Shown: positions 21,080 through 26,306 of the stretch, in pieces
Layout of the letters: each line of letters begins with the position of its first letter
How positions within the stretch are numbered: the stretch's first letter is position 1
From: an uncultured Planctomycetales bacterium
Lineage (GTDB): Bacteria > Omnitrophota > Gorgyraeia > Zapsychrales > JAHFFX01
Direction: 5' to 3'
Assembly (NCBI GenBank): GCA_964620805.1
Contig: CAZUJQ010000003.1
Span: forward strand, 1 to 57,583
Length of the DNA: 57,583 bases
Position numbers and translations under genes: made by a program
The notes under the pieces: generated by a model
What the model was told of the DNA's origin: nothing
Databases searched by the model: none
What the model saw: only the letters and a program-made list of their open reading frames with translations

Positions 21080-22067
21080 GCCATATGGGTTTGGCATTAC
21101 CGGAGTTGGTAAATACATTCCCAAAAGGCTCGTAACCACCAAGGATGCGGCCGAGCGCTCGGGTAGTGATCCCCGATGGATTTTGGATCGTACCGGCATT
21201 CAAACCCGATACTTTGTGGAAAACGGCGATACGGCCTCAGGGTTGTCGGCTAAGGCCGCAGGACAGGCGCTGGAACGGGCAAAAGTAAACCCTGAAGAGG
21301 TTGATCTTGTTATCGGCTGTACATTTTCGGGTGATTACCGTTTTCCGGCGATGGCGGCGAAGGTACAGGATCTGATCGGAGCACGGCACGCCGGGGCCTT
21401 TGATGTCCTCGCCAACTGCACGGGTTTTCAAATCGGAATAACGATTGCCGTGGATCGGTTGCATGCCGATGGGGCACTGAAAAACATCCTTGTTTTAGGA
21501 ACGGCAGTCCAATCCCCTTTTCTTAACTGGAAAGATCCTGAAGCCTCAACATTTTTTGGTGACGGTGCCGGGGCGGCTGTGGTGTCACGAGTTCCAACAG
21601 GGTACGGGCTTTTAGCTTCGGAGATTAATTGTAATGGACGGGTTTACGATGCCGTGCGGTTGCGCGGCGGCGGCTCAAGCCATCCACTCACCGAGGAGAA
21701 TATCAATGAGGGCTTGCAATATTATGAGATGGATGGCTTGGAGACATGGAAACAGTTGATTCAATATCAGCCTATTGCCGTTAAAGGGGCTTTGAAAAAA
21801 GCGCAGCTAGCCATTAAAGATGTTGATATCTTTATTTTTCATCAGGCGAATTTAAAACTCATCGAGTACCTCATGGGAAAAATGAAATTGCCTATGTCTA
21901 AGACGTATACAAATGTGGATCGGTTGGGCAATACCGCTGATGCCTCGATCCCAATTGCGCTTTGTGAAGCAGTCGAAAAGGGATTGATTAAGCGTGACCA
22001 TATTGTTGTCATCGCCGGCGTGGGGGCAGGATATATCTTCGGCGCAAGCGTTTTAAGATGGCATTAA
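21069..22067 (+). CDS. fabH: 3-oxoacyl-ACP synthase III (FabH-like)
   Basis: RTGIQTR; catalytic C-H-N triad in ANCTGF, FHQAN, LGNTADAS. Confidence 0.85.
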   Translation: MENKPYGFGITGVGKYIPKRLVTTKDAAERSGSDPRWILDRTGIQTRYFVENGDTASGLSAKAAGQALERAKVNPEEVDLVIGCTFSGDYRFPAMAAKVQDLIGARHAGAFDVLANCTGFQIGITIAVDRLHADGALKNILVLGTAVQSPFLNWKDPEASTFFGDGAGAAVVSRVPTGYGLLASEINCNGRVYDAVRLRGGGSSHPLTEENINEGLQYYEMDGLETWKQLIQYQPIAVKGALKKAQLAIKDVDIFIFHQANLKLIEYLMGKMKLPMSKTYTNVDRLGNTADASIPIALCEAVEKGLIKRDHIVVIAGVGAGYIFGASVLRWH

Positions 22068-23266
22068 TGGACAAAGATAAAACAATAAAAGGTTTTGATG
22101 CGACTAAAATTGGTGATGTCTGCGAAATGACCCATCGGATTACATCCGATGATATCAAAAAATTTGTGGAATTGACCGGCGACAACAATCCCTTACATTG
22201 GGATGAGGATTTTGCCAAAGCCACGGATTTTCGAAGGCCCATCGCTCATGGCATGCTCTCAGCCTCGTTTCTTTCAACAATGGTTGGAATGCTGTTGCCC
22301 GGACCCGGGGCGCTGTGGCTGTCGCAGTCTTTAAAATTCTTACGTCAAGTTTACGAAAACGATACGATCCGTATCGTTGCTAAAGTGAAACAAAAATCCG
22401 ATGCCTCGCGAGTTTTGGTTTTGGAAACGATGATTTATAACCAGCATAACGAAGAAGTGATCACAGGTGAAGGCCAAGTGAAAATGCTTTCAGCAAAACA
22501 GGAGGATAAATTTGTGGAAAAAAAGATTAAGGTTGTCCTGGTGACCGGTGCCAGCCGGGGTATCGGGGCGGCGATTGCCCGCAAGTTGGCCTCAGAAGGC
22601 CACAGCGTTATTGTGAATTTTGCGAAAAATAAAGCGGAAGCCGAAAAGGTTGTAGAAATGATTAAATCGCAAAAGGGGAAAGCTGTGGCGATTCAGGCGG
22701 ATATTTCCAGTGAAGAAGACGTGAAGACTATGTGTCAAAAGGCAAAAAAGGAATTCGGCTCCATTGATGCTTTTGTGCAGAATGCATCGGGCGCAATCAA
22801 TTTAAAAACCTTCAATGACTTAAGTTGGAATGATATTCAAAGGCATTTGGATGTGCAGCTGAAAGGAGCCTTTCTTTGTTTGCGGCAGATTTTGCCTGTC
22901 ATGACCGAAAATGGCGGAGGCTCGGTCGTTGTCATTGGCTCCGTTGCAGTGGATTCGATTCCGCCGGCTAAGCAAACCGCTTATGCGATCGGTAAGGCCG
23001 CCTTAATGACTTTTGCCAAGTCGTTGGCCGCGGAATACGGACCCAAAAATATTCGGGTCAATGTTGTATCTCCGGGTTTGACCGTAACAGATTTAACCGC
23101 ATCCATTCCGGCACAGGCAAAAGAATTAACGCGGATGACAACACCCCTACGTCGATTGGCGCAACCTGAAGACATCGCGGATGCCGTATCTTTCTTGATC
23201 AGTCCGGGTTCACGTCATATCACAGGCGAAACGCTACGTGTCTGTGGCGGCATGGTCATGTTATAA
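22058..23266 (+). CDS. MaoC-like (R)-hydratase/dehydratase fused to SDR reductase
   Basis: LTGDNNPLHWD..IAHGML..LPGPGA (MaoC) followed by TGASRGIG, YAIGK, NVVSPG. Confidence 0.85.
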   Translation: MALMDKDKTIKGFDATKIGDVCEMTHRITSDDIKKFVELTGDNNPLHWDEDFAKATDFRRPIAHGMLSASFLSTMVGMLLPGPGALWLSQSLKFLRQVYENDTIRIVAKVKQKSDASRVLVLETMIYNQHNEEVITGEGQVKMLSAKQEDKFVEKKIKVVLVTGASRGIGAAIARKLASEGHSVIVNFAKNKAEAEKVVEMIKSQKGKAVAIQADISSEEDVKTMCQKAKKEFGSIDAFVQNASGAINLKTFNDLSWNDIQRHLDVQLKGAFLCLRQILPVMTENGGGSVVVIGSVAVDSIPPAKQTAYAIGKAALMTFAKSLAAEYGPKNIRVNVVSPGLTVTDLTASIPAQAKELTRMTTPLRRLAQPEDIADAVSFLISPGSRHITGETLRVCGGMVML

Positions 23267-23267
23267 A

Positions 23268-24236: not shown

Positions 24237-26058
24237 AAGCAATTTAGACGAAATCTTAAAAAGGCTGGACACCGATCAGTCGATTGCCGCCTATAATGCC
24301 ACGGCAAATGCTTTGAATAAATTAACAGCCCAAGAATGTGGTTTACCGTCTTTTCGTATCGCCATTTTAAGGAATTTTACTGTCGAGCCGCTTTTGCCGA
24401 TTATAAAATCGGAAGTTGCCCGTATGGGATTTTTCCCGGAAATTTATTTAGGAAATTATGACGCAATCGCCGCGGAAGTGATGGATGAAAAAAGCAAATT
24501 TTATGCCTTTAAACCTCATTTCGTTATTTTAGCACAATGGTTAGATAATCTTGCCCGGGAGCTCATGAAAAGTTTTATTGATTTTTCGAAAGAAAGACTG
24601 GGCGTTACAGTGGACAGAATTTTTGAAACTATTACTACGCAAATACGGCAGATTCGGAAACTTTCTATCGCCATAATCTTAATTAACAATTTCCCATTGC
24701 CATATCCCATGGCTTTCAGAATTCTTGAAGGACAAAGAGAAGATATGCAGAGAAATACAATCCGAAAGATCAACCTGGAGCTCCGCCGTCTGACAGAGGA
24801 ATTTCGAAATGTTTTTATTGTCGATTACGAATATCTAATGGCAAGAGTGGGCCTTTGGAAAGGATACGATGAACGTTATTGGCAAATGGCAGGAGTGCCT
24901 TTTTCGCAAGCAGTGCTTTTACCTTTTGCTTTTGAATATATACAATTCATCCGCGCTTTTTCAGGTAAAACTTATAAATGCATCATTTTGGATTGTGATA
25001 ATACCCTTTGGGGCGGTGTTATCGGTGAAGATGGTTTAGAAGGAATAAAACTCGATACCACTTACCCGGGCTCGTGCTATGTTGCGTTTCAAAAAGAAAT
25101 CTTGAAATTGCACAACCGCGGGATTATTTTGGCACTTTGCAGCAAAAATAATGAAGCGGATGTGTTGGAGGTTTTCAGGAAGCACCCCGACATAGTTTTA
25201 AAGGAAAATCATTTTGCCACGTGGAAGATTAATTGGGAGGATAAAGCGGCCAATATCAGAAAAATTGTTGAAGAGCTTAATATCGGTATGGATCATGTGG
25301 TTTTTGTCGATGACAGCGAATACGAAATTGGTCTTGTCAAATTTCAGATTCCGGAGATTCAAACCATTCTTCTTCCTTCGGAGCCATCGCAGCTACGCTT
25401 AGCGCTTCTAGAAAAAGGTTATTTCGACTCCTTGTCTTTAACGCAAGAAGACAAAGACCGGACCAAAATGTATAAAGAAGAAGCCACTCGGCGGCGGATG
25501 TATTCCGAGGCAAAATCCATTGAGGATTATTTGACAGAGCTTCAAATCGTCGCCCACATTGGGATTCCCGGAAGCTTTCATATTCCGCGGGTGGCCCAGT
25601 TAACCCAAAAGACAAATCAGTTCAATTTGACCACGCGCCGTTATACAGAGGGCGATATCGAGACATTTGTCAAAAACAATGATGCGGATGTCTGGTACCT
25701 GCATCTTAAAGACAAAATATCCGATTTGGGTCTTGTGGGGACAGGAATTATCAAATACAACGGTTCGGTCGCTGAGATCGACAGTTTTCTTTTAAGCTGT
25801 CGTATTTTAGGGCGCAATGCCGAAGATGCTTTTCTATCATATATGATTCAATATGTTAAAGACAGGGGATACAAAACTCTTTTGGGTCGCTATATCCGTA
25901 GCAGCAAAAATCAACAGGTGGCCGATTTTTATAAGCGCCGGGGGTTTGTCACTCAAAAAGAAGGTCCGCAGGAATCCGAATGGCGGTTGGATTTAAAGAA
26001 TTTTGTATTTCAGATTCCTAAATGGATAACGATTAAAACGGATGACAAATCAATATGA
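24229..26058 (+). CDS. fkbH: FkbH-like HAD-IIIC glyceryl-ACP transferase/phosphatase
   Basis: ILDCDNTLWGGVIGEDG, LCSKNN, INWEDKA, VFVDDS, RVAQLTQKTNQFNLTT, LLSCRILGR. Confidence 0.88.
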   Translation: MNKSNLDEILKRLDTDQSIAAYNATANALNKLTAQECGLPSFRIAILRNFTVEPLLPIIKSEVARMGFFPEIYLGNYDAIAAEVMDEKSKFYAFKPHFVILAQWLDNLARELMKSFIDFSKERLGVTVDRIFETITTQIRQIRKLSIAIILINNFPLPYPMAFRILEGQREDMQRNTIRKINLELRRLTEEFRNVFIVDYEYLMARVGLWKGYDERYWQMAGVPFSQAVLLPFAFEYIQFIRAFSGKTYKCIILDCDNTLWGGVIGEDGLEGIKLDTTYPGSCYVAFQKEILKLHNRGIILALCSKNNEADVLEVFRKHPDIVLKENHFATWKINWEDKAANIRKIVEELNIGMDHVVFVDDSEYEIGLVKFQIPEIQTILLPSEPSQLRLALLEKGYFDSLSLTQEDKDRTKMYKEEATRRRMYSEAKSIEDYLTELQIVAHIGIPGSFHIPRVAQLTQKTNQFNLTTRRYTEGDIETFVKNNDADVWYLHLKDKISDLGLVGTGIIKYNGSVAEIDSFLLSCRILGRNAEDAFLSYMIQYVKDRGYKTLLGRYIRSSKNQQVADFYKRRGFVTQKEGPQESEWRLDLKNFVFQIPKWITIKTDDKSI

Positions 26059-26306
26059 CAACTTTTATGGAAGAGGATATAAAGCGGGTGATGGCCGATA
26101 TTTTTGGTGTCGATGTCCAAACGGTCAATGAGAATTCATCCATTGATACCCTTCCGGACTGGGATTCACTCAGGCACCTTAATCTTATTTTAGCGCTGGA
26201 AGAAAAATTTCAGATTTCCTTTAGCGAAGAGGAAACGATCGAGATTTTAAATTATAAACTTATCAAAATAGCCCTGGAAAAACACGGGGTGAAATTTGGC
26301 CCTTAA
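26055..26306 (+). CDS. Acyl carrier protein
   Basis: WDSLRHLNLILALEEKF; directly after fkbH. Confidence 0.85.
   Translation: MTTFMEEDIKRVMADIFGVDVQTVNENSSIDTLPDWDSLRHLNLILALEEKFQISFSEEETIEILNYKLIKIALEKHGVKFGP

Follow-up and report, generated by a model that had tools for sequence, protein, structure and literature searches.

A MaoC-SDR fusion, an FkbH-type enzyme and a carrier protein predicted to supply lactyl-type groups for a pseudaminic-acid-type sugar

Gene content of the cassette

The 57,583-nt contig CAZUJQ010000003.1 (assembly GCA_964620805.1; the whole stretch is hereafter the window) comes from an Omnitrophota metagenome-assembled genome (MAG; 2.59 Mb, 93.7% complete) and carries a single long plus-strand glycan operon from ~1150 to 54300. 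We focus on the region 22058–26306, in which four overlapping plus-strand open reading frames (ORFs), with mutual overlaps of 4–29 nt, encode a fusion of a MaoC dehydratase with a short-chain dehydrogenase/reductase (SDR), a methyltransferase (MT2), an FkbH-type glyceryl-ACP synthase and an acyl carrier protein (ACP2). A first-pass annotation of this DNA had reported a dehydratase-reductase fusion two genes from FkbH and its ACP; the ORFs and their coordinates are confirmed, with one methyltransferase gene intervening. We predict that the region is a discrete, carrier-protein-based tailoring line for (O-methyl)lactyl groups on a pseudaminic-acid (Pse)-type sugar.

The fusion (22058–23266; 402 amino acids (aa)) joins a PhaJ-type single hotdog MaoC domain (residues ~13–145) to a classical FabG-like SDR domain (residues ~158–402). 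MT2 (23238–24236; 332 aa) is a class I S-adenosylmethionine (SAM) methyltransferase by Pfam, with an N-terminal extension of ~140 aa, and probably O-methylates the hydroxyacyl group bound to ACP2. The FkbH-type protein (24229–26058; 609 aa) contains FkbH_N, a HAD-IIIC phosphatase and a C-terminal transferase part, and scores 282 bits against TIGR01686 (curated cut-off, 146.65); its HAD motif is D-C-D-N-T, and its structure match is 3slr. ACP2 (26055–26306; 83 aa) has a DWDSL motif and weak PP-binding/ACP matches, and its start lies 4 nt ahead of the FkbH stop, as expected of an adjacent dedicated carrier protein. A TIGR01686 score above the cut-off, the HAD-IIIC DxDxT motif and an adjoining carrier protein place the 609-aa protein in the FkbH family. 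By analogy with characterized members, FkbH is predicted to use 1,3-bisphosphoglycerate and to form glyceryl-S-ACP, and we propose ACP2 as the carrier that it loads.

Both halves of the fusion retain the catalytic motifs of their families. Pfam assigns residues 25–118 to MaoC_dehydratas (70 bits) and residues 164–399 to adh_short_C2 (203 bits), with a further match to KR (57 bits). Across an alignment of 32 fusion orthologs, the hydratase-2 residues D42, N44, P45, H47 and G65 are invariant, as are the glycines G164, G168 and G170 of the TGxxxGIG motif and the Y309-x3-K313 pair of the SDR. The structures nearest to the N-terminal domain are the short-chain (R)-hydratase PhaJ (5cpg, 1iq6), with which the catalytic hydratase residues align, and human HTD2 (3ir3); those nearest to the C-terminal domain are the FabG ketoreductases 3osu and 3sj7. 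The fusion therefore has the catalytic Asp and His and the HG glycine of PhaJ-type (R)-specific enoyl hydratases, together with the TGxxxGxG and Tyr-x3-Lys motifs of classical FabG-like ketoreductases. Enoyl reductases of the FabI and FabL types carry Y-x6-K, and this assignment was ruled out for the fused SDR by its Y-x3-K motif. A ketoreductase of the Y-x3-K type fits a sequence of dehydration followed by ketoreduction on a 2,3-diol, and the FabG-like motif TGASRGIG suggests NADPH as the cofactor. At least eight large clusters of ~400-aa MaoC-SDR fusions are present in the ESM Atlas, all labelled merely 'SDR family oxidoreductase'; no relative was found in a plasmid collection at E 1e-40.

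Linkage of the fusion with FkbH across genomes

A scan of GTDB species representatives with the fusion alignment recovered 31 loci with full-length orthologs, ~29 of which had enough flanking sequence to be judged. FkbH, with ACP2, adjoins the fusion or lies within a few kb of it in 27 of these ~29 loci, and FabH is present in 9 of the 31. The full-length loci come from more than 15 phyla, with lineages including CPR, Woesearchaeota, Acidobacteriota, Gemmatimonadota, Chloroflexota, Bacteroidota, Proteobacteria and Burkholderiales, as well as Thiothrix, a Helicobacteraceae MAG, Prochlorococcus and Actinomycetota. An ACP2-type gene lies 3′ of FkbH in most loci examined, and in loci L001–L006 the MT2 gene separates the fusion from FkbH. 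Minimal fusion-FkbH-ACP loci contain in addition just an acyltransferase and a deacetylase. Sediminibacterium roseum (L013) and Massilia sp. SM-13 (L020) are examples of cultured bacteria with the minimal trio. An arrangement common to dozens of unrelated genomes is not a matter of chance.

The same association holds within the phylum of the window. Among 401 sampled genomes, the fusion (E < 1e-60) was found in 10 and FkbH (above its curated cut-off) in 63, and all ten fusion genomes were FkbH-positive. In the nine other fusion genomes, the fusion and FkbH are separated by 11 bp to 4.1 kb, the gene order is fusion-FkbH-ACP, FkbH-ACP-fusion or divergent, and FabH was found at none of these nine loci. 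Because the fusion genomes form a subset of the FkbH genomes and not the reverse, the fusion would seem to catalyse a tailoring step that follows FkbH and is optional. FkbH domains also occur within ORFs of thousands of residues, which resemble megasynthases, in genomes G337, G242, G061, G300, G223, G311 and others of the phylum, so that it has both polyketide synthase (PKS)-embedded and free-standing FkbH.

We also examined 49 stand-alone FkbH loci, made up of 40 further FkbH genes (±5 kb) and the nine phylum fusion loci. MaoC and SDR both adjoin FkbH in 23, and neither is found in 15. By ORF analysis, the 23 loci comprise seven single fusions (~400 aa), nine split pairs (MaoC, ~145 aa; SDR, ~250 aa; one in the order SDR-MaoC) and seven fusions of two MaoC domains with one SDR (535–650 aa). 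The two-MaoC variant beside FkbH was seen in L101, L154, L160, L161, L163, L169, L170, L184 and L185, from the phylum of the window and two complete Campylobacterota genomes, and may be a pseudo-dimeric double hotdog form of the same enzyme. Dehydratase and ketoreductase are thus fused, split or duplicated, always beside FkbH-ACP, which is the classical signature of one shared pathway. The first-pass annotation's proposal of a free-standing dehydratase/ketoreductase-FkbH-ACP set acting on glyceryl-ACP is strongly supported by this gene-neighbourhood evidence, given that the fusion occurs essentially only by FkbH-ACP, with or without FabH.

Neighbouring genes, proposed chemistry and rival explanations

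Directly 5′ of the four core genes, at 18992–22067, are four more plus-strand genes with overlapping ends. ACP1 (18992–19306; 104 aa) is a divergent carrier protein without a Pfam match; it carries the motif GGNLDSISF, in which L-D-S is invariant in six homologs, all ahead of the same SDR gene; in L012 and L014 as well, the gene ahead of the SDR is ACP1-like. The stand-alone FabG-like SDR (19299–20012; Pfam, NCBIfam) is the proposed ketoreductase of the FabH branch and co-occurs with FabH and ACP1 in L001–L003, L006, L008, L010–L012, L014 and L020. MT1 (20015–21079) is a methyltransferase with an AprA-type winged helix (WH_AprA, Methyltransf_36; TIGR04543, 58 bits), weakly related to C-methyltransferases that act beside a carbonyl, namely the 2-ketoarginine methyltransferase MrsA (PDB 8r4z) and AprA MT1 (6b39). 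At the closest NCBI relative of the cassette, four genes of a corrinoid methyltransferase set (B12-binding, URO-D/MtaA-like, Met_synt_B12 and S-methyl_trans families) lie between MT1 and FabH (L003:5628–9002), which hints at a cobalamin-dependent methyl supply within the acyl line. FabH1 (21069–22067) is a β-ketoacyl-ACP synthase III (KASIII; NF006829, 287 bits; cut-off, 249) with an intact Cys-His-Asn triad in an alignment to 8vd9 (ANCTGF, HQAN, GNTADAS). FabH lies immediately 5′ of the fusion in L001–L006, L010–L012 and L014.

Other loci show how the two gene sets can be arranged. L008 contains DegT, ACP, SDR, FabH, a 353-aa protein and a polysaccharide deacetylase, followed by an epimerase and then by a second deacetylase, the fusion, FkbH, ACP and a 284-aa protein; it reads as a pair of parallel modules, both equipped with a carrier, a putative transferase and a deacetylase of their own. 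In L001 and L003, the cassette is bounded at both ends by an acyltransferase gene. In the window itself, carrier proteins, methyltransferases, acyltransferase domains and deacylase-like domains each number two, and the paired acyltransferase and deacylase-like domains fit two acyl groups, one for each of two amino groups. The genome encodes a single AcpS and a single FabD elsewhere. ACP1-SDR-MT1-FabH1 is probably a separable, optional second branch, which would build on ACP1 a 3-hydroxyacyl group, in the simplest case 3-hydroxybutyryl and perhaps C-methylated, destined for the second amino group. The first-pass annotation had treated a FabH/SDR-derived 3-hydroxybutyryl or crotonyl group as the alternative to a lactyl group; it had not counted ACP1, and with this carrier of its own the FabH branch probably stands beside the lactyl line rather than replacing it. 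A third small acyl module, at 48335–51319, consists of a second KASIII (FabH2, 48335–49354), a 348-aa weakly GNAT-like protein and a polysaccharide deacetylase, repeating the FabH-transferase-deacetylase pattern of the first module of L008. FabH2 is 31% identical to the FabH of Campylobacter jejuni and 37% to that of L008, closer to both than FabH1 is.

Two plus-strand genes with acyl-transfer domains follow ACP2. The first (26296–28119) combines, by Pfam, an AAC(3)-like N-acyltransferase with a DUF2172/DUF4910 aminopeptidase-like domain, and we propose that its product carries out acyl transfer plus de-N-acetylation. The second (28101–30131) combines a Cj1295-like DUF4910/DUF2172-HTH_47 part with a PseH-like GNAT domain (Pfam; PseH, 45 bits). 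Further upstream on the same strand, the operon encodes the acceptor-sugar pathway marker PseC, an aminotransferase (7222–8439; TIGR03588, 515 bits; cut-off, 423.5), a PseG-type hydrolase (13792–14937; TIGR03590, 239 bits; cut-off, 153.6) and a NeuB/PseI-type nonulosonate synthase (14934–15980; NeuB Pfam, 290 bits; PseI, 311 bits, under its cut-off). PseC and PseG above their cut-offs, together with the synthase, indicate a pseudaminic-acid-type 5,7-diamino sugar as the acceptor. The same cluster holds an unusual fusion of a CTP_transf_3 cytidylyltransferase with a class III aminotransferase of the glutamate-1-semialdehyde aminomutase type (10069–12162). Flagellin was rejected as the glycosylation target, as the 93.7%-complete genome yielded neither a flagellin nor an archaellin gene. 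Five proteins of 560–720 aa have no Pfam or NCBIfam match (16875–18965, 30772–32733, 37547–39541, 39564–41252 and 45883–48054); two of them flank the acyl cassette, and all five are candidate transferases for the decorated sugar. The equivalent gene 3′ of the acyltransferase in L003 is assigned to PF27878 (PFTS_polysacc) in a precomputed table.

We infer every chemical step that follows, and the acceptor position. From glycolysis FkbH would draw a C3 unit, taken to be 1,3-bisphosphoglycerate as for characterized FkbH enzymes, and load it as glyceryl-S-ACP2. The thioester would acidify the C2 proton, allowing the MaoC Asp/His pair to abstract it and to β-eliminate the C3 hydroxyl, and the resulting enol (enol-pyruvoyl) would tautomerize to pyruvoyl-S-ACP2. 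The fused Y-x3-K ketoreductase, probably NADPH-dependent, would at once reduce the 2-oxo thioester to lactyl-S-ACP2; the reactivity and lability of an α-keto thioester would offer a reason for fusing dehydratase and ketoreductase. MT2 would then probably O-methylate the remaining 2-hydroxyl. On the sugar, the Cj1295-like aminopeptidase-fold domain would first remove the resident N-acetyl group, after which the AAC(3)-like or the GNAT domain of the two genes that follow ACP2 would move the acyl group from ACP2 to the amino group, probably N5. This is the likely site because the GlcNAc-derived acetyl of the Pse pathway is on N5, and because N5 is the position altered in both C. jejuni and Psychrobacter marincola. 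The ACP1 branch would run as a separate line. We consider it probable that the fusion acts on glyceryl-ACP and yields a 3-deoxygenated, lactyl-type group; the identity of the final acyl group and its position on the sugar are less certain.

A sugar of the predicted product class is known. The capsule of P. marincola KMM 277T contains N5-[(R)-2-hydroxypropanoyl]-Pse7Ac, reported as the first lactic-acid-decorated pseudaminic acid and described without its genes, in a paper that also refers to Vibrio cholerae O144 as having N-(R)-lactyl-perosamine (PMC7281560). In the P. marincola compound, a Pse-type sugar bears its lactyl amide at the nitrogen to which the glyceroyl-derived group is attached in C. 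jejuni. A bolder generalization is that the MaoC/SDR-FkbH-ACP trio is the genetic basis of N-lactyl and O-methyl-lactyl groups on nonulosonic and other amino sugars across bacteria and some archaea, and that here the two carrier lines replace both N-acetyls, with 2-O-methyl-lactyl and a methyl-branched 3-hydroxyacyl group, to give a doubly non-acetylated sugar unseen in any structure; we advance this tentatively and think it doubtful on balance.

The closest competitor shares most of the chemistry proposed above and differs in what becomes of the lactyl unit. Lactyl-ACP2 or its O-methyl derivative would serve as a primer that FabH1 condenses with malonyl-ACP1; the SDR would reduce the 3-oxo group and MT1 would methylate, so that a C5 acyl group, for example 3-hydroxy-4-methoxy-pentanoyl, would reach the sugar. 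FabH1 has an intact condensing triad, and its gene overlaps the fusion in the window and abuts it both there and at nine other loci; two carrier proteins are present, the FabD and AcpS encoded elsewhere could provide malonyl loading and activation, and PKSs offer a precedent in which lactate starters are extended. Such coupling nevertheless seems unlikely to us, since the FabH-SDR-ACP1 set is missing from most fusion loci, the FabH set of L008 lies four genes off and is accompanied by a separate deacetylase and acyltransferase-like gene, an acyltransferase stands at either end of the cassette in L001 and L003, and the domain counts in the window fit two acyl groups. A stronger separation would place the fusion in the FabH line alone, as part of a mini fatty-acid cycle leading to crotonyl-, butyryl- or 3-hydroxybutyryl-ACP, leaving FkbH-ACP2-MT2 to make an O-methylated glyceroyl group as in C. 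jejuni. The window does hold a complete ketosynthase/ketoreductase/dehydratase/reductase set, among the unusual N-acyl groups of nonulosonic acids 3-hydroxybutyryl is the most frequent, and MaoC domains normally act on 3-hydroxyacyl thioesters. Most fusion loci, however, have FkbH and lack FabH, every fusion genome of the phylum sample has FkbH, FkbH-ACP is directly flanked by the MaoC and SDR genes where these are split, and the SDR carries Y-x3-K instead of the Y-x6-K of FabI/FabL. Reductase type and linkage together exclude a simple pairing of dehydratase and enoyl reductase within a FabH cycle, and we regard this arrangement as improbable.

A different kind of alternative keeps glyceryl-ACP as the substrate and changes the outcome: the enzymes might yield hydroxymalonyl or methoxymalonyl units, substituting for FkbK and FkbI, epimerize C2 by oxidation-reduction or dehydration-rehydration, or stop at pyruvoyl or O-methyl-enolpyruvoyl. 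A VOC 'epimerase-like' gene occupies the corresponding place in C. jejuni (PMC7099621), and the OocJ loading module has the composition DH-MT-FkbH-ACP, that is, dehydratase, methyltransferase, FkbH and ACP (PMC4552970). Certain loci have MaoC alone beside FkbH. FkbH, ACP and O-methyltransferase also form the established front end of the methoxymalonyl-ACP pathway. Set against these points, no FkbK-type or FkbI-type family was found in the window, a hotdog dehydratase has no part in oxidation to hydroxymalonyl, and the steady pairing of dehydratase with ketoreductase, often fused, is explained most simply by elimination followed by reduction; we give an outcome of this kind little credence.

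Several observations weigh against the lactyl reading itself. The known substrates of PhaJ-type hydratases are (R)-3-hydroxyacyl compounds that lack a 2-hydroxyl, and the DH-KR (dehydratase-ketoreductase) modules of PKSs to which the cassette is compared are themselves proposals and use a different (PS-DH) dehydratase fold. Just MaoC or just SDR was detected in ~11 of the 49 stand-alone FkbH loci, so the pair is not obligatory. Longer proteins searched for MaoC-SDR joined to FkbH yielded none, which is a weak negative. FabH1 overlaps the start of the fusion by 10 nt, as a joint pathway might have it. The dehydratase-ketoreductase role of the MaoC-SDR family is itself a prediction from sequence and context, and for P. 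marincola the chemistry is known and the link to the trio is predicted. We nonetheless find the lactyl reading to be the best-supported explanation, on a basis of comparative genomics rather than biochemistry.

N-acyl groups on nonulosonic acids shape recognition by immune systems and phages, and to our knowledge few of the enzymes responsible for their attachment are known. For Tannerella forsythia, a paper from 2017 referred to the genetic basis of N-glyceroyl decoration as 'a major challenge' (PMC5378307). If our reading is correct, an easily recognized trio predicts glycerate-derived, 3-deoxygenated acyl groups, making this part of glycan chemistry readable from genomes in many phyla, and explains the difference between lactyl and glyceroyl decoration. 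A further gain would be a small, soluble, type II-like model of DH-KR-FkbH-ACP loading chemistry, which has so far been proposed just for large PKSs. The literature searched contained no text joining FkbH with lactyl, and FkbH appeared there alongside nonulosonic sugars in a single paper, as an annotation; we rate a discrete DH/KR-FkbH-ACP line for sugar N-acylation as widespread and previously undescribed.

Comparison with known systems

The nearest relative of the cassette in gene content and context is the flagellin glycosylation locus of C. jejuni. Flagellin of strain NCTC 11168 bears Pse7Ac5(2,3-di-O-methylglyceroyl), whose formation depends on Cj1295, a protein with an aminopeptidase-like domain that is phase-variable via a homopolymeric tract (PMC3068675); nearby, cj1302 is an FkbH-domain gene (PMC7099621), cj1303 is FabH2 (PMC3229698) and cj1299 is acpP2 (PMC6109747). 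FkbH was found in 44 of 401 sampled Campylobacterota genomes, and half of the 20 mapped loci follow the scheme pseC, DUF4910 protein, AAC(3)-like transferase, ACP, methyltransferase, (138-aa VOC protein), FkbH, FabH and ACP, with neither MaoC nor SDR within ±8 kb in these ten. Exact sequence matches identify L173 and L176 as C. jejuni, L181 as C. armoricus, L183 as C. volucris and L186 as C. insulaenigrae. The Cj1295-like gene, an intact 443-aa frame in L173, is broken into frames of 73 and 312 aa in L176 (L176:3787–5119), which fits the published phase variation of Cj1295.

We compared 13 window proteins (the cassette genes, FabH2 and PseC) with the C. jejuni locus L173 using blastp. The strongest correspondence was that of residues 14–445 of the DUF4910-GNAT protein (28101–30131) to the Cj1295-like protein (42%, E 8e-102). 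The 26296–28119 product matched the AAC(3)-like transferase with its AAC(3)-like N-terminal part (35%) and the Cj1295-like protein with its C-terminal part (25%), and MT2 matched the methyltransferase between acpP2 and FkbH (29%, E 5e-36). Identities were 34% for ACP2 and the upstream ACP, 31% for FkbH and the FkbH-domain protein, 31% for FabH2 and FabH, and 25% for FabH1 and FabH. Homologs of all six families of the cj1295–cj1304 type are thus present within the Pse cluster of the window; the VOC protein of L173 had no match among the 13 proteins compared, and where the glyceroyl-retaining loci lack DH-KR and have a VOC gene by FkbH, the window has the MaoC-SDR fusion.

In outline, the window has the genes of the Campylobacter cassette and, in addition to them, a dehydratase-reductase, a second SDR, MT1 and ACP1. 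Campylobacter has a VOC-family gene in place of MaoC/SDR, and its product retains both glycerate oxygens, both methylated; the retention of both oxygens without DH-KR leads us to predict loss of the C3 oxygen where DH-KR is present. L184 and L185, from complete Campylobacterota genomes, have FkbH-ACP followed by the double-MaoC-SDR fusion, so that, together with the Campylobacter loci that lack DH-KR, both types occur within one phylum. The window also differs in fusing its Cj1295-like domains to acyltransferase domains, and in its target, which is flagellin in Campylobacter, whereas in the genome of the window neither a flagellin nor an archaellin gene turned up. The two systems probably share one logic, in which an N-acetyl group is removed and the amine is re-acylated from an acyl-ACP.

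Other FkbH-containing systems match the cassette in part. FkbH, a dedicated ACP and an O-methyltransferase are common to the window and the methoxymalonyl-ACP pathway (FkbG/H/I/J/K). None of the window ORFs of at least 150 aa matches the Pfam families of the FkbK-type 3-hydroxyacyl-CoA dehydrogenase or the FkbI-type acyl-CoA dehydrogenase, and this pathway was rejected on that ground; MaoC and SDR in their place point to deoxygenation rather than oxidation. The tetronate cassette comprises FkbH-like, ACP and FabH-like components (PMC4979870), and the window likewise has FkbH, ACP and KASIII close together. The window differs from it in having no Agg4/Agg5-type genes and no polyketide or fatty-acid supplier of a β-ketoacyl group, in that no PKS is found among its ORFs, and in its nonulosonic-acid glycan context. 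A tetronate reading was set aside as improbable, since FabH seems dispensable for the trio in most genomes (it is present at 9/31 GTDB loci and 0/9 phylum loci with the fusion). Shewanella sfmABCDE was also rejected as the closest system, as it comprises NeuB-like, reductase, methyltransferase and ATP-grasp genes without an FkbH or ACP line.

DH-KR-FkbH-ACP loading modules have been proposed for trans-acyltransferase (trans-AT) PKSs, including BryA (bryostatin) and those of FR901464 and tartrolon, in which glyceryl-ACP would be converted via pyruvoyl-ACP to lactyl-ACP. The first-pass annotation had called the window cassette a free-standing equivalent of such a module, and part of that likeness stands: dehydratase, ketoreductase, FkbH and ACP are encoded together, the same activities surround FkbH and its carrier in near-identical order (DH-KR, methyltransferase, FkbH, ACP), and the same chemistry is proposed. 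The cassette also resembles the OocJ module in its order of DH-MT-FkbH-ACP (PMC4552970). Common descent is the part that does not stand, because the MaoC domain is a PhaJ-type single hotdog. The PKS module belongs to one megasynthase, whose double hotdog dehydratase lies on the path to a ketosynthase, whereas the window genes are discrete, their reductase is FabG-like and their predicted product goes to a sugar amine. The cassette is thus predicted to work like a PKS lactyl module without being a member of that family, and the relationship is one of functional analogy.

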